DNA from: a virus
Lineage: Duplodnaviria > Heunggongvirae > Uroviricota > Caudoviricetes
Virus record (IMG/VR): IMGVR_UViG_2663762945_000004
Coordinates: 1 to 6,584 of that record
Length of the DNA: 6,584 nucleotides
Reading direction: 5' to 3' (one strand)
Shown here: positions 1 to 6,584 of the stretch, one piece after another
How the letters are laid out: each line of letters opens with the position of its first letter
Numbering within the stretch: the stretch's first letter is position 1
The notes under the pieces: generated by a model
Seen by the model: the letters and a program-made list of their open reading frames with translations, nothing else
Database searches by the model: none
What the model was told of the DNA's origin: nothing
Made by a program: the position numbers and the translations under genes

Positions 1-510
1 ATGCAGCTTAAGCTCCGGATACATAGCGTTAACTTCTGGCATTTTCATCAACGCTTCAACGATATGGCCGTCGAATGTTGCCATGTCTTCCTGCAACAAT
101 TCCTGTGCGCTAATCACCATATCAACAGTGATGTTTTCACATGTGTCGAACTTAACCATGACAGCGTTCTGTACTTCAGGGGCTAGGTTGTCAAAAGTGA
201 CGTTCATCGGATCTGATTCAGTCTCAACCGGGACAAAGGAAGCTGACTCCTCATCCCAGCGGTTTTCCTGCATATATTCAGCATCCCAGGAATCGAGGGC
301 AGGGCGGGGTATACCGGGTTTATCCTCGCAAACAAGAAATTTATAAGCGCAGTCCTGAGCAGCCGGATATTGCTCCAGGAATTGCCAGGTAAATTTGGCA
401 CGGGCGCGGCGTTCGTCGCCAGCTTCAATGGCAGTGGCTACAGCGACTGCACCTTCTTCCTTTATTGCCTGTTCGTCCGGAATAGCGGCGCAAATAAAGA
501 CTTTACTCAT
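1..510 (-). CDS. Hypothetical phage early-left protein, 3'-truncated by the window start (170 codons, no stop in window)
   Basis: Hand translation of the minus strand from ATG at 510-508 (GAGGT about 9 nt upstream) gives an uninterrupted frame to position 1: MSKVFICAAIPDEQAIKEEG...NAMYPELKLH. Absent from the ORF track because it has no stop in the window; the plus-strand ORFs 1..186 and 83..346 are its antisense shadows. No family recognised. Confidence 0.55.
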   Translation of the reverse strand, partial: MSKVFICAAIPDEQAIKEEGAVAVATAIEAGDERRARAKFTWQFLEQYPAAQDCAYKFLVCEDKPGIPRPALDSWDAEYMQENRWDEESASFVPVETESDPMNVTFDNLAPEVQNAVMVKFDTCENITVDMVISAQELLQEDMATFDGHIVEALMKMPEVNAMYPELKLH

Positions 511-589
511 GTTGTTTTAACCTCATTACAGATTTAAGGGTGAACAAATCCCTGCCATTGCTGGCATATAAAATGAAACCGGATATTAA

Positions 590-802
590 TTACGGCGCTG
601 TTTTAAGTCCTGCCGGGATTTCGTTATTATCCATGTGAATAACTTTATCGACCGGATAACAGTTGCCGGGAATTTTCTGTTCCGCTGCGGCAGCCGTGCA
701 TTCTTTCATTGAACCGTAAATGTCAATAACCAGATTAACAGGCTCGCCAGTATTAAGATAAACTGTCAGAGCGAGTGCAAATGCTGTATTCACTGCCAGC
801 AT
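590..802 (-). CDS. Small hypothetical protein (about 70 aa from internal Met; ORF extends to 847)
   Basis: Minus-strand ORF with stop at 590. Hydrophobic N-terminal stretch (MLAVNTAFALALTVYL) from the ATG at 802. Neither candidate start (847 or 802) has a well-spaced Shine-Dalgarno. Start at 802 would overlap the upstream ORF by 13 nt. Confidence 0.25.
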   Translation of the reverse strand: MLAVNTAFALALTVYLNTGEPVNLVIDIYGSMKECTAAAAEQKIPGNCYPVDKVIHMDNNEIPAGLKTAP

Positions 803-978
803 CCTTTTTGCATCAGACGTAAACGGGCCAGCATTGAAACAATGCATATTTGATTTAATAGCTCCCGTTCGTGTTTTCTCTTATTAATAGCATCTTCAGT
901 AAATACAGGGTTACTGATTCTGACACCAATTTCAAAGCAACCTTCAGACGTATTAACGTTTGGTAATAACGTTTCCAT
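790..978 (-). CDS. Small hypothetical protein (62 aa)
   Basis: ATG at 978 preceded by GAGGA with 7-nt spacing; the SD overlaps the TGA stop of the upstream Rha-family gene (989-991), suggesting co-transcription and coupling. No family recognised. Confidence 0.4.
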   Translation of the reverse strand: METLLPNVNTSEGCFEIGVRISNPVFTEDAINKRKHERELLNQICIVSMLARLRLMQKGCWQ

Positions 979-988
979 TATCGCGTCC

Positions 989-1546
989 TCAGCAATGAAT
1001 TTTGAGTAATTGCTCCACAGTCATATTTTTAATTGAGTTCCGGTTAACAAGAGTCCATCCCTGTTTTTCCAGATAAAACCGGAAAGTCTCCAGGGTACAG
1101 ACGAGAGCGCCATCAGGAACGGTTTCGGTGAATCTGATGTTGCCGCGTTCGTCGAAGTGAACAACCAGAGTGCGGCCATCGCCTGAAATTATTTTGTCAG
1201 TGGGTGGGGTGTTATTCTGGCACAGCTCGGCCTCCATGCGATCGAACTCAGCAATGTAGGCTTCTTTAAATGCAGCGGCTTTTTTGCCAGTGAATCCCAT
1301 CACCAGGAAAACGAAGCCGTTTTTGGTGATTTGGTACATTGGGAGTTTGCGTCCGGTTGAGTCGGTGTATTTGCTCGACACAAAATTGTGCTCAGTGAAT
1401 TTTGCTGAACAGTCCAGATTGCGAATTTTATCCAACACTCGTTCGTGGCGTTTGCCAAAGAACTCGGCGATCGCAACAGACGTAGTGACAGCGCGACCAT
1501 TTTCGATGGTTACGTCAGGGTGAGAAAGGGTAAGGGTAGTAGCCAT
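989..1546 (-). CDS. Rha-family phage regulatory protein (pRha domain), possible antirepressor-type regulator
   Basis: Translation from ATG at 1546 (GGAGG SD 7 nt upstream) gives MATTLTLSHPDVTIENGRAVTTSVAIAEFFGKRHERVLDKIRNLDCSAKFTEHNFVSSKYTDSTGRKLPMYQITKNGFVFLVMGF..., which I recognise as an N-terminal Phage_pRha-type domain. The track ORF continues in frame upstream to an ATG at 1843 (AGGTGAG SD), so the true start is ambiguous. I prefer 1546 because the pRha domain is normally N-terminal and the upstream extension contains a terminator-like hairpin. Confidence 0.7.
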   Translation of the reverse strand: MATTLTLSHPDVTIENGRAVTTSVAIAEFFGKRHERVLDKIRNLDCSAKFTEHNFVSSKYTDSTGRKLPMYQITKNGFVFLVMGFTGKKAAAFKEAYIAEFDRMEAELCQNNTPPTDKIISGDGRTLVVHFDERGNIRFTETVPDGALVCTLETFRFYLEKQGWTLVNRNSIKNMTVEQLLKIHC

Positions 1547-1715
1547 GATGGCAGCCTCCGCGATGAATTTGATTAACTCACCACCGAGGTTTTCCACGAC
1601 CATAAGGGTGGTGAGACGTACAGGGGTGGAAATACCGGTCATCACGGAACCCGGCCAGCCTTGCGGCAGCCCTGCACGCCCCACCATAATGCGAATGTGG
1701 CTGTGCTTAACGCAT

Positions 1716-1738
1716 AAAAAAACCGCCTGAGCGCGGTT
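1716..1738 (-). terminator. Putative intrinsic terminator on the minus strand (hairpin plus U-tract)
   Basis: Plus strand reads aaaaaaaccgcctgagcgcggtt. On the minus-strand transcript this is a stem AACCGC / GCGGUU (4 GC + 2 AU pairs) with a 6-nt loop, followed by a run of 7 U. The stem is short, so strength is uncertain. It lies about 170 nt upstream of the Rha start at 1546. Confidence 0.4.
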
Positions 1739-1865
1739 ATGCGCCGTGAATGATTTCGGGTTTCCACGCCCGGCACCCGTTTTATAAGGTGCAGGCGAAC
1801 TATAATTCCACCCGTTCTGGTTTTCAATAGCTACATTCAACATTTTCTCTCACCTTTCATCACCG

Positions 1866-2021
1866 AAGTGAATTTTGTGATGCGGTGCCTGGTGCCTCCA
1901 GGTGACGTTAACCAGTTAACAATTAACGCCGGATACAGAGAACCCACCCATAACACACTGTTTTTGGTTTTAACTGTTCCGCGTGCGCTTAGCCGCATTC
2001 ACCGCATCACAAAATTCACTT
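1866..2021. repeat. Perfect 22-bp inverted repeat (arms 1866-1887 and 2000-2021) flanking a 112-bp spacer
   Basis: Left arm aagtgaattttgtgatgcggtg is the exact reverse complement of right arm caccgcatcacaaaattcactt. The spacer contains a small hairpin (cctgg tgcct ccagg, 1888-1902) and two GTTAAC palindromes. No convincing ORF overlaps it. Confidence 0.85.
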
Positions 2022-2383
2022 TAAAAAGGGCGGCAGAGCAGTCACGGAGTAAAACTGATACCGCCAAACGTCACCAGAAAATTGATAACAGAGGGCGTTG
2101 CAGCGGAGTTGTCACTTAAGCGTATGGTCAACCTGACAACCCGGCGTCCTCAACGGGGGAAGGAATAACCCCGCCATACTTACCGCCGCGCCATTTCGCG
2201 GATTGCCACAACCGGAAGCGCACGGTCGAATTAAATTTAACGACAAAGTACAGAGAGACGAGCTTCTCCGTGCGTTTTCGTGTTATGCCCTGACTTTTCA
2301 GGGATATATCCTTTTCAGTAAACTGTCAGTGCCGGATTCTTATCCGTGTCCGGCGCACGCACTCTACCTCACCTGTGAATAAA

Positions 2384-2758
2384 TTAATGATTAATTGATA
2401 TTTTGTTGTTTGATTCAACTTTCCCATCGGATGTGTGATGCTTTAAATCACAGGAATTAATACTGCTTGCTGTAAAATGATTTTCAAGGGGAGCTATTCG
2501 AATCCCTTTCTTTTTCATTAACAAGCCAAATCCTTTATTAATGATGTCCATTAATTCCAGAAAGTATTTTTCATGTAAATCCTGGTTATCAGAGAGCTGC
2601 TTCTCTTCGTACAGCCCGATAAAGGCTCGGCGTACGTTACCGGATATATTGTCGATGGTTTCTTTTTCTACGGTACTCAGGTCAAGAGTCGCCAGTTGAG
2701 AGCGAACCACATTCGATGCCATTTCCTGGAATGGTACTGGTAAATCTTTAAATTCCAT
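2384..2758 (-). CDS. Hypothetical protein (124 aa from Met at 2758; ORF extends to 2770), unknown function
   Basis: ATG at 2758 has a GAGGT SD with about 6-nt spacing. The alternative ATG at 2770 overlaps the upstream ORF stop by 1 nt (TGATG). Protein MEFKDLPVPFQEMASNVVRSQLATLDLSTVEKETIDNISGNVRRAFIGLYEEK..., no family recognised. The 3' two-thirds (about 2381-2580) is about 30 percent GC by hand count, far below the neighbours. Confidence 0.55.
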   Translation of the reverse strand: MEFKDLPVPFQEMASNVVRSQLATLDLSTVEKETIDNISGNVRRAFIGLYEEKQLSDNQDLHEKYFLELMDIINKGFGLLMKKKGIRIAPLENHFTASSINSCDLKHHTSDGKVESNNKISINH

Positions 2759-2769
2759 CGTCAACCTCA

Positions 2770-2922
2770 TCAGTCGGAGTTTCTTGCTAACCAGCGACGC
2801 GCGCCAGCTTCGGTTTTAAACGTTTTGCTTTTGGTATACGTCATCGCGGTGAACGTACCGTCCTGGTTGGGGAACACGCCACATACCAGAGATTCGCTGT
2901 TGCCAAGATCGATAGTATCCAT
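2770..2922 (-). CDS. Small protein (50 aa from Met at 2922; in-frame ORF extends to 3003), resembles small YdaF/DUF1391-like prophage proteins
   Basis: ATG at 2922 preceded by GAGGT at 4-nt spacing. An upstream in-frame ATG at 3003 also has a GAGG SD, so the start is ambiguous. Sequence MDTIDLGNSESLVCGVFPNQDGTFTAMTYTKSKTFKTEAGARRWLARNSD; the YdaF/DUF1391 resemblance is from memory and unverified. Confidence 0.5.
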   Translation of the reverse strand: MDTIDLGNSESLVCGVFPNQDGTFTAMTYTKSKTFKTEAGARRWLARNSD

Positions 2923-3098
2923 GCTGACCTCATTTCCCCTTAACGCCGGGGTAGCGGAACAAAAACCTGCTGCATAGTTATTAAAGTTGAACCCTGCCGT
3001 CATGTTCTTACGCCTCGGGCTGGCTACTTAACCCCTGACCACTGCCTGGTAACTCGAAGTATTGCCCTGCATTCTGTGGGGCGGGGTGGGTGGCAGGT

Positions 3099-3156
3099 AT
3101 ATAATGTACTTTGTGTTCATTGTTGTAAAGTACATTTAGTACATTTTGTGTGTAAA
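3099..3156 (-). promoter_or_regulatory. Putative leftward early promoter with operator-like repeats (pL/oL analogue)
   Basis: Three copies of the 7-mer ATGTACT or its reverse complement at 3104-3110 (forward), 3129-3135 and 3138-3144 (reverse). A candidate minus-strand sigma70 promoter overlaps them: -35 TTTACA (plus 3129-3124), 17-bp spacer, -10 CATTAT (plus 3106-3101). A plus-strand TATAAT also occurs at 3100-3105. Confidence 0.35.
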
Positions 3157-3219
3157 AAAATGAGATGGGATAAAGTGAAGCACAAACCCGGAGGAAGGCG
3201 CTACCGGATTTATGCTGGT

Positions 3220-3639
3220 TTAAGAGGCTTTTTGTTTTTTCTTTCGTGCTAACTCTTCGTAAATTGCATTGTACTTCTGTTTTTTCTCTTCAAGAGTTTT
3301 TAAAAGTTCATCTGTCTCACTGTCAGGGAGCTCGTCCAGAAGGTCAATGATGATTTTTTGTCTTGGATTTAACTCCTGATAGAAACGTACCTGTCCACTT
3401 TCTTCTGTATCCTCTCCCAAAAGATAGGTTGGTGTTGTTCCTATTAGTGTTGCTAATTCCCTTAATTTCTCCCGGCGAGGAATTGTTTCGCCATTAAACC
3501 ATTTGCTAACCGCTTTTGGTGTTAATTTCATTCGACGGGCAATTTCTGCCTGCCTTCCATGTTGTTCATAACCAGCGTTTTCACAGGCTAGCGCAAGCCT
3601 ACTGGCGAACTCTTTACGCGCTTTATCTTCATGAACCAT
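3220..3639 (-). CDS. Prophage repressor, HTH XRE family (CI-like, 139 aa), no LexA-like S24 peptidase domain
   Basis: ORF-track protein has an N-terminal XRE-type helix-turn-helix (QAEIARRMKLTPKAVSKWFNGETIPRREKLRELATLIGTTPTYLLGED) and a short charged, probably helical C-terminus (EELARKKKQKAS). It is divergent from a Cro-like gene. No SD precedes the ATG, consistent with a leaderless transcript as for lambda cI from pRM. Confidence 0.85.
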   Translation of the reverse strand: MVHEDKARKEFASRLALACENAGYEQHGRQAEIARRMKLTPKAVSKWFNGETIPRREKLRELATLIGTTPTYLLGEDTEESGQVRFYQELNPRQKIIIDLLDELPDSETDELLKTLEEKKQKYNAIYEELARKKKQKAS

Positions 3640-3718
3640 AAGTTCAATGATATTCGCTCTTGAATGTACTGTCAGTTCTGTTATAGCATGTACTCAAAGT
3701 TCACATTGTGAGGGTGAT
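3640..3718. promoter_or_regulatory. Divergent promoter/operator region (pRM-like leftward, pR-like rightward)
   Basis: Two forward ATGTACT copies at 3664-3670 and 3688-3694. Candidate pR: -35 TTGAAT (3660-3665), 16-bp spacer, -10 TATAGC (3682-3687). Candidate pRM on the minus strand: -35 CTGACA (plus 3675-3670), 17-bp spacer, -10 TATCAT (plus 3652-3647), ending about 7 nt before the repressor ATG. An 11-bp perfect palindrome TCACATTGTGA (3701-3711) sits just before the cro-like SD. Confidence 0.45.
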
Positions 3719-3973
3719 ATGAACCAGAAAACACTTGAAGATGTAATCAAAACTGTTCGCGTTGCTGTTGTGGCCGACGTTTGTGGTGTCAGCCAAAGAG
3801 CAATCTATAAATGGATGGATAACGGAAAATTGCCTCGCACAGAATATACCGGCGAAACAAATTACGCTGAAAAAATCGCTCTTGCATCAAACGGATTATT
3901 TTCTGCCGATGCAATTTTAACTATTGGCAGGAATAAAACTACTACGAAAAAGCTGATGGGAGTTGATTCATGA
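3719..3973 (+). CDS. Cro-like HTH regulator, YdaS family (84 aa)
   Basis: ATG at 3719 preceded by GAGGGTG. Protein MNQKTLEDVIKTVRVAVVADVCGVSQRAIYKWMDNGKLPRTEYTGETNYAEKIALASNGLFSADAILTIG... has the Cro/YdaS-type HTH pattern. Divergent from the repressor. Its TGA stop overlaps the next gene start (ATGA at 3970-3973). The track ORF starts upstream at 3647 but lacks an SD there. Confidence 0.8.
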   Translation: MNQKTLEDVIKTVRVAVVADVCGVSQRAIYKWMDNGKLPRTEYTGETNYAEKIALASNGLFSADAILTIGRNKTTTKKLMGVDS

Positions 3974-4395
3974 AAATCAAGCATGAACACATCCGCATGG
4001 CGATGAATGCCTGGGCGCATCCGGACGGCGAAAAAGTACCGGCTGCGAAAATTACCAAAGCGTATTTCGAGCTGGGAATGACGTTCCCGGAACTGTATGA
4101 CGACAGCCATCCGGAAGCCCTGGCTCGCAATACTCAGAAAATTTTCCGCTGGGTGGAGAAAGACACCCCTGATGCGGTTAAAAAAATTCAGGCGTTGTTA
4201 CCAGCTATCGAAAAAGCAATGCCACCTCTGCTGGTGGCCCGAATGCGCAGTCATAGCTCAGCCTATTTTCGGGAACTAGTGGAGACGCGGGAACGACTGG
4301 TGAGAGACGCTGATGATTTTGTCGCAGTGGCGATCGCTGGTTTCAACCAGATGAATCGTGGTGGCCCTGCAGGAAATATTGTGGCTGTGCATTGA
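3970..4395 (+). CDS. ydaT: YdaT-family protein (CII-like regulator; family historically annotated as a putative toxin), 141 aa
   Basis: Protein begins MKIKHEHIRMAMNAWAHPDGEKVPAAKITKAYFELGMTFPELYDDSHPEALARNTQKIFRWVEKD..., which I recognise as the YdaT family of Rac-like prophages. Start overlaps the upstream stop by 4 nt, indicating translational coupling. Confidence 0.78.
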   Translation: MKIKHEHIRMAMNAWAHPDGEKVPAAKITKAYFELGMTFPELYDDSHPEALARNTQKIFRWVEKDTPDAVKKIQALLPAIEKAMPPLLVARMRSHSSAYFRELVETRERLVRDADDFVAVAIAGFNQMNRGGPAGNIVAVH

Positions 4396-4466
4396 CTCGC
4401 AATATTCATACCGGATCGCTTCCGGCAATTTGTGAGTAAAAAGATTCGGTATCAAAAGAGGTGAGT

Positions 4467-5228
4467 ATGGCTAACGCCTGGCTCAGATTATGGCATGACA
4501 TGCCAAATGACCCTAAGTGGCGAACAATTGCCAGGGTGTCAGGGCAGCCAATTGCAACAGTGATGGCAGTGTATATCCACCTCCTGGTGAGCGCGTCACG
4601 AAATGTCACGCGAGGTCACATTGAGGTCACGACAGAAGATTTGGCAAGTGCGCTCGACGTGACAGAAGAGGTAATTGATTCAATTTTGCAGACGATGCAG
4701 GGGCGGGTACTTGATGGTGATTTAATCACTGGATGGGAAAAACGCCAGGTGCTTAAAGAGGACAACGGCAATATTTCGCAAACCGCAAAATCTCCTGCAG
4801 AGCGCAAGAGGGCGCAGCGAGAGAGGGAAAGAAAGCGGGAACAAAATGGCGATTGTCACGGCGCGTCACGAAATGTCACGCATATGTCACGACGAGTCAC
4901 GACAGATAAAGATACAGATAAAGATACAGATCAAGAAGATCAAAACACTATGGTCCATGGCGTAAAAAACGCCACGAACCAGGCAGGGGATGTTCAGACC
5001 GTCAATCTTGGTCAGCCAGCAGGCACGACACCGGAAGCCGATTCAGCGTATGCGCTGAAAGCCGATTCGGGCGCTGTGCAGCAGGTGATGACCGCAAGGC
5101 CGGAGCAATCACACCAACTGCAGCAGCCCGAAGCCGATTCCGCCATTCAGCGGGAAGCCGATCGGGTAGTCCCGGAAAACACCGGGCAGTCTGTGGGACG
5201 AGTGGATTACCGGAACTCGGGCTGGTGA
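4467..5228 (+). CDS. Replication initiator-like protein (lambda O analogue) with iteron arrays inside its coding sequence
   Basis: ATG at 4467 with AGAGGTG upstream (the track starts at GTG 4461). N-terminus MANAWLRLWHDMPNDPKWRTIARVSGQPIATVMAVYIHLLVSASRN... followed by a winged-helix-like segment (TEDLASALDVTEEVIDSILQTMQGRVL). An acidic TDKDTDKDTDQEDQ linker is encoded by a tandem repeat. Two GTCAC iteron arrays lie inside the gene, as the lambda origin lies inside O. The family name is not verified. Confidence 0.65.
   Translation: MANAWLRLWHDMPNDPKWRTIARVSGQPIATVMAVYIHLLVSASRNVTRGHIEVTTEDLASALDVTEEVIDSILQTMQGRVLDGDLITGWEKRQVLKEDNGNISQTAKSPAERKRAQRERERKREQNGDCHGASRNVTHMSRRVTTDKDTDKDTDQEDQNTMVHGVKNATNQAGDVQTVNLGQPAGTTPEADSAYALKADSGAVQQVMTARPEQSHQLQQPEADSAIQREADRVVPENTGQSVGRVDYRNSGW
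4592..4636. repeat. Iteron array 1: four GTCAC(G) direct repeats at 10-11-bp spacing
   Basis: GTCAC begins at 4596, 4606, 4616 and 4627. The units are gtcacgaaat, gtcacgcgag, gtcacattgag and gtcacgacag. Confidence 0.6.
4855..4905. repeat. Iteron array 2: five GTCAC(G) direct repeats at 10-11-bp spacing (candidate replication origin core)
   Basis: GTCAC begins at 4855, 4865, 4875, 4886 and 4896. A 21-bp segment GCGCGTCACGAAATGTCACGC is shared exactly with array 1 (4592-4612 and 4861-4881). The array is immediately followed by an AT-rich tandem repeat. Confidence 0.6.
4902..4940. repeat. Tandem 12-bp repeat (acagataaagat twice, then a degenerate third copy), AT-rich, adjacent to iteron array 2
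   Basis: acagataaagat at 4902-4913 and 4914-4925, then acagatcaagaagat. It encodes the TDKDTDKDTDQEDQ linker and is placed like the AT-rich unwinding region next to the lambda ori iterons. Confidence 0.6.
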
Positions 5229-6229
5229 TCGTTAAGCCGGGCCGTGAATCCATGCCGGTATTCCACAATACCCGGGTACTGGTGGAGCCGGAACCGAAAA
5301 GCATGCGTAATCTGCCGTCCGGGGTCGTTCCTGCCGTTCGCCAGCCGCTGGCGGAGGATAAATCATTACTGCCATTTTTCAGCGACGAACGAGTGATTCG
5401 TGCTGCTGGTGGCGCTGGCGCATTGTCTGACTGGTTACTGCGCCATGTTAAATCCTGCCAGTGGCCACACGGCGATTATCACCACAGTGAAACCGTCATT
5501 CACCGTTATGGTACCGGCGCAATGGTGTTGTGCTGGCACTGCGACAACCAGCTGCGCGACCAGACCTCCGAATCACTCGGGCAACTTGCTCACCAAAACC
5601 TGTCTGCATGGATGATTGACGTCATACGCCATGCAATGAATGGCTCGCAGGAACGGGAATTATCGCTGGCTGAATTATCCTGGTGGGCGGTCCGCAATCA
5701 GGTGGCGGACGCGCTACCGGAAGCGGTATTACGTCGTTCGCTGGGGTTGCGTGCGGAAAAAATCCGCTCAATGTACCGTGAAAGCGACATCGTACCGGGA
5801 GAGCAGACCGCCACCAGCATACTGAAACAGCGCACAAAAAATCTTGCGCCGCTGCCTCACGCCCACCAGCAACAGAACCCACCACAGGAAAAGACGGTGG
5901 TCAGCATTGCCGTTGATCCTGAGTCTCCGGAATCTTTCATGAAACGACCTAAACGTCGCCGCTGGGTTAACGAGAAATACACACGCTGGGTGAAGACACA
6001 GCCGTGTGCGTGTTGTGGTAAGCCAGCCGACGATCCCCATCACCTGATTGGTCATGGTCAGGGCGGAATGGGGACAAAATCTCACGATATTTTCACGCTA
6101 CCGCTGTGTCGGGAGCATCACAACGAGCTTCATGCGGATCCTCTGGCGTTCGAAGAAAAGCATGGTTCTCAGGTTGATTTAATTTTTCGTTTTCTTGATC
6201 ACGCCTTTGCAACTGGCGTGCTTGGGTAA
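5225..6229 (+). CDS. DUF968-family prophage protein with a C-terminal Cys/His HNH-like motif (putative nuclease or zinc-binding)
   Basis: The track ORF starts at GTG 5225, overlapping the upstream TGA (GTGA); an alternative ATG is at 5252, and neither has a clear SD. The C-terminus CACCGKPADDPHHLIGHGQGGMGTKSHDIFTLPLCREHHNELH matches the motif I associate with DUF968 (YdfU-like) proteins. Family assignment is from memory. Confidence 0.7.
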   Translation: MIVKPGRESMPVFHNTRVLVEPEPKSMRNLPSGVVPAVRQPLAEDKSLLPFFSDERVIRAAGGAGALSDWLLRHVKSCQWPHGDYHHSETVIHRYGTGAMVLCWHCDNQLRDQTSESLGQLAHQNLSAWMIDVIRHAMNGSQERELSLAELSWWAVRNQVADALPEAVLRRSLGLRAEKIRSMYRESDIVPGEQTATSILKQRTKNLAPLPHAHQQQNPPQEKTVVSIAVDPESPESFMKRPKRRRWVNEKYTRWVKTQPCACCGKPADDPHHLIGHGQGGMGTKSHDIFTLPLCREHHNELHADPLAFEEKHGSQVDLIFRFLDHAFATGVLG

Positions 6230-6241
6230 AAGAGGTGACTG

Positions 6242-6584
6242 ATGATCATAGATTTGGTTTTACCTTACCCGCCGACGGTGAACACTTACTGGCGACGCCG
6301 TGGCAGCACATATTTTATCTCGGAGGAGGGAAAGCGTTATCGCCGGGCTGTGGCGCTTATTGTTCGCCAGCAGCGGCTGAAATTAAGCCTGTCCGGAAGG
6401 CTGGCGATAAAGGTGATTGCAGAGCCACCGGATAAGCGTCGTCGAGACCTGGACAATATCCTGAAAGCACCGCTGGATGCGCTGACGCATGCGGGAGTGT
6501 TAATGGACGATGAGCAGTTTGATGAAATCAATATCGTTCGTGGTCAGCCAGTATCTGGTGGACGTATGGGGGTGAAGATTTACC
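6242..6584 (+). CDS. rusA: Crossover junction endodeoxyribonuclease RusA (Holliday junction resolvase), 3'-truncated by the window end
   Basis: Hand translation from ATG 6242 (AGAGGTG SD 4 nt upstream): MIIDLVLPYPPTVNTYWRRRGSTYFISEEGKRYRRAVALIVRQQRLKLSLSGRLAIKVIAEPPDKRRRDLDNILKAPLDALTHAGVLMDDEQFDEINIVRGQPVSGGRMGVKIY. This has the RusA motifs (PPSxNxYxR, DxRRRDxDN, DD). It is missing from the ORF track because there is no stop in the window; track ORF 6235..6435 is in the wrong frame. Confidence 0.85.
   Translation, partial: MIIDLVLPYPPTVNTYWRRRGSTYFISEEGKRYRRAVALIVRQQRLKLSLSGRLAIKVIAEPPDKRRRDLDNILKAPLDALTHAGVLMDDEQFDEINIVRGQPVSGGRMGVKIY

Follow-up and report, generated by a model that had tools for sequence, protein, structure and literature searches.

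The immunity region of a lambdoid prophage was analysed in a stretch of 6,584 nucleotides (nt) from a virus of the Caudoviricetes (positions 1 to 6,584 of the IMG/VR record IMGVR_UViG_2663762945_000004), which is referred to below as the window. Inside the leftward operon of this region, a gap at positions 1547-2383 precedes rha, a gene of the antirepressor type. We conclude, with a probability of about 85%, that the gap carries two RNA-based regulatory units on the leftward (minus) strand, namely a DicF unit and a cassette in the style of satellite phage P4 that combines an IsrK-like RNA, a C4-like RNA and rha. The first-pass annotation had described the gap as about 840 bp of apparently non-coding DNA, which held only in part: no ordinary protein gene lies between 2383 and 1546, but the frame across 1547-1843 is conserved open. 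Its suggestion of a structured leader or regulatory RNA was borne out by DicF, an IsrK/seqA-like RNA and a C4/CI-like antisense RNA, and all features of the gap described below are on the minus strand.

Five matches from an Rfam search of the whole window fell in the gap, all on the minus strand. With gathering scores of 48 bits for DicF, 47 for STnc100, 46.7 for c4-a1b1, 50 for isrK and 45 for C4, three matches exceeded the threshold of their family, and these followed each other in the expected order on the same strand: DicF (RF00039, 76.7 bits), isrK (RF01394, 65.4 bits) and C4 (RF01695, 77.6 bits). Since three families scored above their gathering thresholds and a domain closed by a 22-bp stem folded with a z-score of -6.6, the gap contains more than chance would provide. 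For comparison, homologues were collected with the 185-aa Rha protein as query, which gave 88 loci, 79 of them with the whole upstream module.

The C4/CI-like antisense RNA at 1691..1604 consists of a 17-bp closing stem and two hairpins, and RNAfold reproduced this fold at -42.9 kcal/mol; it is a member of the C4 family. Two segments are exposed, a' in the loop of hairpin 2 (1647..1639) and b' in the single-stranded 3' junction (1632..1626), and each has one complementary site upstream and one downstream. The downstream targets lie at 1603..1555 and comprise b2 (1597..1591) and a2 (1566..1558), the latter overlapping the Shine-Dalgarno (SD) sequence GGAGG of rha (1559..1555), 8 nt before the ATG at 1546, so that one target is located on a ribosome-binding site. 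By analogy, a target over the SD is the hallmark of the P1/P7 c4 and P4 CI systems. In P1 and P4, the mature C4/CI RNA is excised from its precursor by RNase P and represses in vivo. Two AUG codons accompany these elements, one at 1687..1685 at the 5' base of the C4-like RNA, corresponding to the start of orf45 in prophage Gifsy-1, and an in-frame AUG at 1603..1601 near b2.

The first-pass annotation had proposed a covariance analysis of homologous prophage regions. Co-variation was counted on an alignment (A1) of 21 distinct sequences and compared with 500 shuffles and with partners slid by 1-3 columns. In this alignment, 96% of the cells were paired versus 37-46% with slid partners, 23 pairs had changed on both sides, and none of the 500 shuffles attained any of the observed measures. 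The C4 loops co-varied with the two upstream and the two downstream target sites. Helix b1-b' (7 pairs) was paired in 100% of the cells with 6 pairs changed on both sides, helix a'-a2 (9 pairs) in 89% with 6 such changes, helix a1-a' (9 pairs) in 91% with 7, and the closing stem of the C4-like RNA (17 pairs) in 99.7%, also with 7; in hairpin 1, 4 of the 5 pairs had changed on both sides. Because a 3-nt gap broke the MAFFT register for pair counting, b'-b2 was judged by duplex energies. The duplexes in the window are 11 bp at -16.5 kcal/mol for a'-a2 and 7 bp at -9.1 kcal/mol for b'-b2. The sequences fell into 6 b-types and 11 a-types of specificity, and the summed energies of the cognate duplexes ranged from -21 to -32 kcal/mol versus means of -9 to -18 kcal/mol for non-cognate combinations.

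The upstream partner sites are carried by the IsrK/seqA-like RNA at 1792..1716, which is predicted to form two hairpins and an intrinsic terminator. Site b1 (1767..1761) lies in the loop of the second hairpin and is followed by a1 (1752..1744) and then by the terminator at 1738..1721 with its U run; the latter is the terminator-like hairpin already noticed in the first pass. A consensus scan placed a promoter-like sequence, TTGAAA-17-TATAGT (10 of 12 matches), at 1827..1799, and the +1 predicted from it (around 1792) coincides with the start of the Rfam match. With its own predicted promoter and terminator, the RNA is assigned by sequence to the isrK family. The promoter-like site was invariant in the Escherichia coli set, and its -10 element was retained in Citrobacter and in P4. 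We infer that it is active and would be the analogue of PLE in P4 and PisrK in Gifsy-1.

Both RNA genes and the promoter-like site lie inside a long open reading frame (ORF) of 284 aa (1843..989), which starts at ATG 1843 with the SD sequence AAGGTG (1856..1851) 7 nt upstream and continues past these elements into rha, nested in the manner of eta and kil in P4. The ORF is annotated in RefSeq as WP_000935598.1, 284 aa. The earlier statement that no ORF with a credible start and SD exists in the gap was not confirmed for this ORF and was only partly right. ATG 1843 and AAGGTG were conserved even in Citrobacter, and 50 of the 52 unique variants had no stop in the long frame, compared with 4-12 stops in the two remaining frames. 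Polymorphic stop columns numbered 0 in the Rha frame versus 13 and 11 in the other frames, a pattern seen in both halves of the extension, and chance was therefore rejected as the cause of the open frame. In P4, ST64B, an Stx1 phage and phage cdtI, the corresponding frame likewise continued for 140-220 codons without a stop. An ORF kept intact in homologues had been named in advance as an observation that would speak against non-coding DNA, and it was found for 1547-1843, which is hence not simply non-coding; dismissing the in-frame extension of Rha had been overstated.

A conserved ORF with a start and an SD could also mean that 1547-1843 encodes the N-terminal "Ash" domain of a 284-aa Ash-Rha protein and that the RNA matches are incidental. 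Beyond the RefSeq coding sequence (CDS), this explanation can draw on Pfam, where Phage_ASH matched aa 14-108 of the long ORF (E 7.7e-15) ahead of Phage_pRha at aa 120-204, and on PHROG 995, which spans all 284 aa. The variable columns do not fit a protein domain: by codon position they numbered 51/50/49 of 99 in the extension versus 76/49/134 of 185 in rha, so that the extension lacked the third-position excess expected of a genuine protein domain under amino-acid selection. Its variation clustered in three groups of positions that change together as base-pairing partners, and both a conserved promoter and an intrinsic terminator fall within the supposed domain. In P4, the ORF assigned to Phage_ASH is the old "cI" CDS, annotated across the CI RNA gene, and in orf45 of Gifsy-1 the nucleotides are conserved while the amino acids vary (PMC4825925). 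Furthermore, all nine Phage_ASH ORFs examined overlie Rfam C4 matches on the same strand, eight of them also isrK matches. We consider the Ash domain reading very improbable. The combination of RNA-like evolution with a frame kept open by selection instead matches, by analogy, the nested-gene design of eta and kil in P4.

The nine ORFs are those at 1547-1843 of the window, at 8168-8584 of locus L092, in loci L093-L097, at 1001-1459 of L099 and at 1001-1327 of L100. When the 99-aa extension served as query, the homologues obtained were for the most part partial "ash family" entries. One paper states that "Ash" is the epsilon antirepressor of P4; this identification was rejected, as epsilon belongs to PF25738 and not to PF10554. 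Judging from the sequences compared, the protein profile PF10554 (Phage_ASH) seems to represent translations of IsrK/seqA plus C4/CI RNA genes. Because the Phage_ASH ORFs overlie C4 and isrK matches and epsilon is of a different family, many annotations as "ash family protein" may mark RNA genes or eta-like ORFs that are kept open only for translation.

The short form of Rha (1546..989, 185 aa) is an antirepressor-type protein of the Rha/Bro network (Pfam Phage_pRha, E 1e-30) with PHROG matches to anti-repressor and Rha families, and its codon-position pattern is that of a coding region. The first-pass annotation had placed its start at ATG 1546, which agrees with the GGAGG in front of it and with distant phage homologues that align from residue 1-12 of the 185-aa protein. 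In loci L038 and L047, the same rha ATG stands behind different upstream sequence with the SD AAGGAGG and no IsrK/C4 module. Directly upstream of rha in L038 (1367-1456), Rfam gave a match to sRNA-Xcc1 (RF02221, 67.4 bits), which suggests an alternative RNA controller for rha. In analogy to kil of P4, anrP of Gifsy-1 and ant of P1, short Rha would be the regulated product.

The other unit occupies the upstream part of the gap. The DicF small RNA (sRNA) at 2080..2028 carries an intrinsic terminator with a U run to 2022. Its Rfam match (2079..2028, E 3.7e-16) covers the full model (1-52), its sequence is identical to dicF of E. coli K-12, and the terminator hairpin folded as expected with the U run after it; the RNA belongs to the DicF family. 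Its context is a dicBF-type operon, downstream of a ydfA-like gene and upstream of dicB, with a cassette of 864 bp now in between. The preceding 5' leader of the DicF precursor (2383..2080) is homologous to the ydfC-dicF spacer of the Qin prophage in K-12. Positions 2377..1869 of the window were 92% identical to 2585-3092 of the K-12 locus (L003), the interval from ydfC through dicF to dicB, and positions 1004..2 continue as dicB and ydfD of K-12 with 90% identity. The distance from ydfC to dicF in K-12 is about 340 nt and likewise non-coding. Among 30 unique homologues, conserved blocks alternated with variable patches in the leader.

DicF of K-12 is released from the polycistronic transcript of dicBp by RNase III, which yields a 190-nt species, and by RNase E, which yields the 53-nt RNA (PMC10448788). 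The presence of the homologous precursor leader agrees with the processing site that had been among the early suggestions for the gap. A stem at 2282..2268 / 2226..2210 (inverted repeat I5, local fold -23.3 kcal/mol) has its 3' arm about 137 nt upstream of the DicF 5' end, which corresponds to the start of the 190-nt product in K-12, and this stem (2282..2210) is the probable RNase III site for a DicF species of about 190 nt. Closer to DicF, about 20 nt upstream, a 12-bp hairpin at 2145..2103 (inverted repeat I7, -15.1 kcal/mol) was nearly invariant in the 30 sequences, even in loci with a different DicF body. In six loci (L076, L066, L060, L091, L044 and L065, compared with window 2095-2028), the DicF body or its 5' seed is replaced, with no loss of conservation in hairpin 2145..2103, the terminator or the 22-bp hairpin further downstream. 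By their sequence, these look like DicF variants with other target specificities.

The dicF-dicB spacer forms a long hairpin domain of 156 nt at 2021..1866, closed by the perfect 22-bp inverted repeat that the first-pass annotation had reported and that was located at 1866-1887 / 2000-2021, with 112 bp between its arms. The several smaller hairpins of that annotation likewise appeared as inverted repeats and local folds in the gap. The domain had a minimum free energy of -69.7 kcal/mol versus -43.7 kcal/mol in shuffled sequences (z = -6.63), and none of 200 shuffles equalled it. An Rfam match to STnc100/PasD (RF02076) at 2016..1874 reached 39.3 bits, below its threshold, and covered model positions 21-154 of 206; membership in this family was not established and the resemblance is only a lead. 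The papers examined on RNase III targets only cite the DicF work of 1990 and give no site for the 22-bp hairpin.

Terminal-style perfect repeats around a short interior, with the 864-bp cassette and its 9-bp flanking repeat at their edge, could also mark a miniature mobile element (a miniature inverted-repeat transposable element or an insertion sequence remnant) in place of an RNA structure. The repeat, however, occupies the same position between dicF and dicB in K-12, where it includes two G.U pairs, and in 30 unique homologues, whose stem differences preserve pairing (C-G to U.G and G-C to G.U). The window contains no further copy, the repeat lacks its own target duplication, and the whole domain folds stably including its internal hairpins, with an sRNA family match, albeit sub-threshold. 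A mobile element is for these reasons very unlikely, and the repeat is read here as the closing stem of an RNA domain.

A further proposal, that the gap is what remains of one or several decayed protein genes such as a broken dicB or ydfC, bears on the same sequence. RefSeq records of near-identical genomes call a pseudogene ("DicB, incomplete, missing C-terminus") at the equivalent of window 1873..1956, and PHROG 24763 matches the ORF 1837..1998. Yet the sequence called a pseudogene, the only such call in RefSeq, is the normal dicF-dicB spacer that in K-12 precedes an intact 62-aa dicB, and its frame is merely open, with no ATG. As the spacer frame of K-12 continues by chance without a stop into dicB, the call probably reflects an artefact of annotation. 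The window itself has an intact dicB (978..790, Pfam), and in K-12 the counterpart of the leader at 2080-2383 does not encode a protein either and has been mapped as a substrate of RNA processing. The remaining ORFs gave no family matches: Pfam and PHROG searches were negative for the plus-strand ORFs 1868..2119 (earlier judged to have no protein-like features, as confirmed), 2203..2382 and 1545..1730 and for the minus-strand ORF 2112..2246, and a scan of PHROGs only was negative for the minus-strand ORF 1642..1827. The small ORFs of both strands were thus rejected as hidden genes, the matches being limited to Phage_ASH on the Rha extension and PHROG 24763 on 1837..1998. Gene decay is extremely unlikely, and the spacer and leader are better described as parts of the DicF unit.

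Comparison with K-12 delimited the cassette. A segment of 864 bp (1868..1005), comprising the promoter, the IsrK-like RNA, the C4-like RNA, the C4 targets and rha, has entered the K-12-type dicF-dicB interval immediately ahead of the ribosome-binding site of dicB. The 9-bp sequence TGAATTTTG stands as a direct repeat on both sides of the segment (1869-1877 and 996-1004); the breakpoints of the K-12 alignment overlap by 9 bp, and the junction sequences were read directly. The left junction was the same in all 40 unique upstream sequences aligned from module-carrying loci, and around 300 of 5,426 complete E. coli genomes have this arrangement. Two further loci contain related modules. A metagenome contig (L100, 756-1327 and 1972-2327) shows the same order of DicF, IsrK and C4 with no rha gene called, and has a gene for an IS110-family transposase a few hundred bases downstream of the module. 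A Salmonella contig (L099, 1061-1402 and 1747-1954) carries two tandem IsrK/a1b1-C4 modules, each under a called protein gene.

The closest counterpart of the cassette is found in P4, where eta encloses the RNA genes together with a constitutive promoter, read-through transcripts give the short form Kil, and full-length eta is translated only from an upstream promoter, its translation preventing termination (PMC10111431). IsrK corresponds to seqA and C4 to CI, and such systems also occur in lambdoid prophages (PMC3632133). Both loci have a promoter with the -10 TATAGT in the long ORF, a seqA/IsrK-type RNA with its terminator, a CI/C4-type RNA and its targets, with one target lying over the SD of the first short gene. 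The same Rfam matches were obtained for P4 (C4 74.9 bits, isrK 60.8 bits), the start of the P4 short gene is near-identical (CTGCCATCATGGCTAC, MATTLT..), and no stop interrupts the long frame over the RNA genes in either locus. Unlike the 65-aa Kil of P4, the short gene here encodes a 185-aa Rha-domain protein, and the spacer between terminator and C4 is 24 nt instead of about 107 nt. P4 is a satellite, whereas the cassette resides in a lambdoid DicA-type prophage between dicF and dicB, and its upstream promoter would be that of the early-left operon and not a delta-activated late promoter. No support was found for an antitermination site in the lambda N/nut sense, as had been considered for the gap; termination control would here be RNA- and translation-based, as in P4.

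In Gifsy-1, a terminated IsrK and a read-through mRNA are produced, IsrK activates translation of anrP, and a translated orf45 overlies a processed stable RNA and must be translated for anrP to be translated (PMC4825925). The isrK-orf45(STnc1160)-anrP locus resembles the window in being part of a lambdoid prophage, in an IsrK with its own promoter and leaky terminator (for the window, both as predicted), and, by gene type, in the antirepressor-like gene downstream of the RNA module. The orf45 AUG is at about nt 107 of the transcript and the window AUG 1687 is nt 106 counted from 1792. In Gifsy-1, the orf45 stop overlaps the anrP AUG, whereas the 47-codon frame of the window is fused to rha; an orf45-type stop before rha is absent from the window and from all 50 intact variants, so that the leader-ORF arrangement of Gifsy-1 does not apply. 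The upstream neighbour is antQ in Gifsy-1 and dicF with its hairpin here.

The immI regions of P1 and P7 (c4, icd, ant) place an antisense RNA and its target on one transcript that regulates an antirepressor. In these phages, a' and b' are each matched both upstream (a1, b1) and downstream (a2, b2), and specificity changes through segment swaps. The window shares with P1/P7 the Rfam C4 family and a downstream site that would block a ribosome-binding site. It differs in that no separate icd-like gene exists, that the regulated gene's own SD lies under a2 and not under b2, and that an intrinsic terminator stands between a1/b1 and C4.

The DicF unit corresponds to the dicBF operon of K-12 Qin (ydfABC-dicF-dicB-ydfD). 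Between the two, DicF does not differ, identity is 92% for the leader with the dicF-dicB hairpin, and ydfA and dicB reach 92% and 90%, respectively. Differences are the replacement of ydfB and ydfC by an unrelated 128-aa ORF, a repressor with only 29% identity to DicA, and the 864-bp IsrK-C4-rha cassette. The immunity region is thus a sharp mosaic, with a repressor of 29% identity to K-12 next to a ydfA-like gene (compared at 2770-2925) and dicB of 90-92%.

From these parts, a working model was derived in which transcription would start at the early-left promoter ahead of the ydfA-like gene and proceed through the 128-aa ORF into the structured leader of about 300 nt. RNase III would cut the stem at about 2282..2210, and RNase E would trim the product to the 53-nt DicF ending at its own terminator. 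Together with Hfq, DicF would act in trans on ftsZ and other mRNAs, as shown for the identical K-12 RNA. The stable hairpin 2021..1866 would separate dicF from the original position of dicB, the cassette having been inserted at its 3' foot. The internal promoter, predicted to be constitutive, would make a 77-nt IsrK/seqA-like RNA that is mostly terminated, and read-through would carry the C4-like RNA. Segments a' and b' would then pair with a2 and b2, and because a2 covers the SD of rha, translation of short Rha would be blocked; the same pairing probably also stops transcription early. Since a' and b' can also pair with a1 and b1, the IsrK-like RNA would compete with the downstream targets and may switch rha on, as it does for anrP in Gifsy-1. 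Upon derepression of the early-left operon, ribosomes starting at ATG 1843 would pass through the terminator, the C4-like RNA and the targets into rha and in this way override the RNA control.

Several points weigh against parts of this picture. The promoter is a consensus match only, and the same scan yields 5 sites versus 3.7 in shuffled sequence. The c4-a1b1 family (RF03163, 1805..1753) scored 28.7 bits, below its threshold of 46.7. The leader of DicF as a whole is not unusually stable (z = -1.34), only its local stems being notable, and the RNase III site was placed by distance and homology only. In C4 modules followed by other genes (JLK-2012, a Yersinia phage and 569R5), the long frame is not open, and the override step would therefore be lineage-specific. 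The lack of a stop before rha, unlike Gifsy-1, means that the details of coupling may differ. Finally, the repressor of the window, a candidate target of Rha, shares only 29% identity with DicA.

The neighbouring genes complete the layout of the locus. The DicA-like repressor (3639..3220, minus strand) is adjoined by a cro-like gene and the leftward operon, whose first gene is the ydfA-like gene (DUF1391 in Pfam; 3003..2770, minus strand). The 128-aa ORF (PHROG 6937; 2770..2384, minus strand) follows between this gene and the gap. Outside the operon, a 46-bp direct repeat with 85% identity (4591-4636 and 4861-4906) lies in a replication-protein gene (4461..5228) and is rich in GTCACG-type motifs; the two copies may be a pair of origin iteron clusters.

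All parts of the locus are of kinds described before and no new kind of system is revealed; what is new is a P4-type cassette with rha between dicF and dicB. It is possible, though we hold this only tentatively, that the cassette links two switches, with the internal promoter keeping Rha off via C4 in the lysogen and early-left firing yielding a long Ash-Rha protein together with DicB, once ribosomes from ATG 1843 have melted the IsrK terminator and C4. If true, a translation-driven positive feedback would commit the prophage to derepression and tie this to the arrest of cell division, and co-resident prophages and satellites would be connected in a network of hetero-immunity through the interchangeable a and b types (6 x 11). 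In RefSeq, the entries for near-identical prophages show no RNA gene here and call the IsrK/C4 stretch an "Ash/Rha family" protein. Recognising the RNAs corrects the picture of how a prophage controls an antirepressor-type gene, DicF and DicB, and the locus provides a clean natural case of an RNA gene combined with an ORF that is kept open only for translation.

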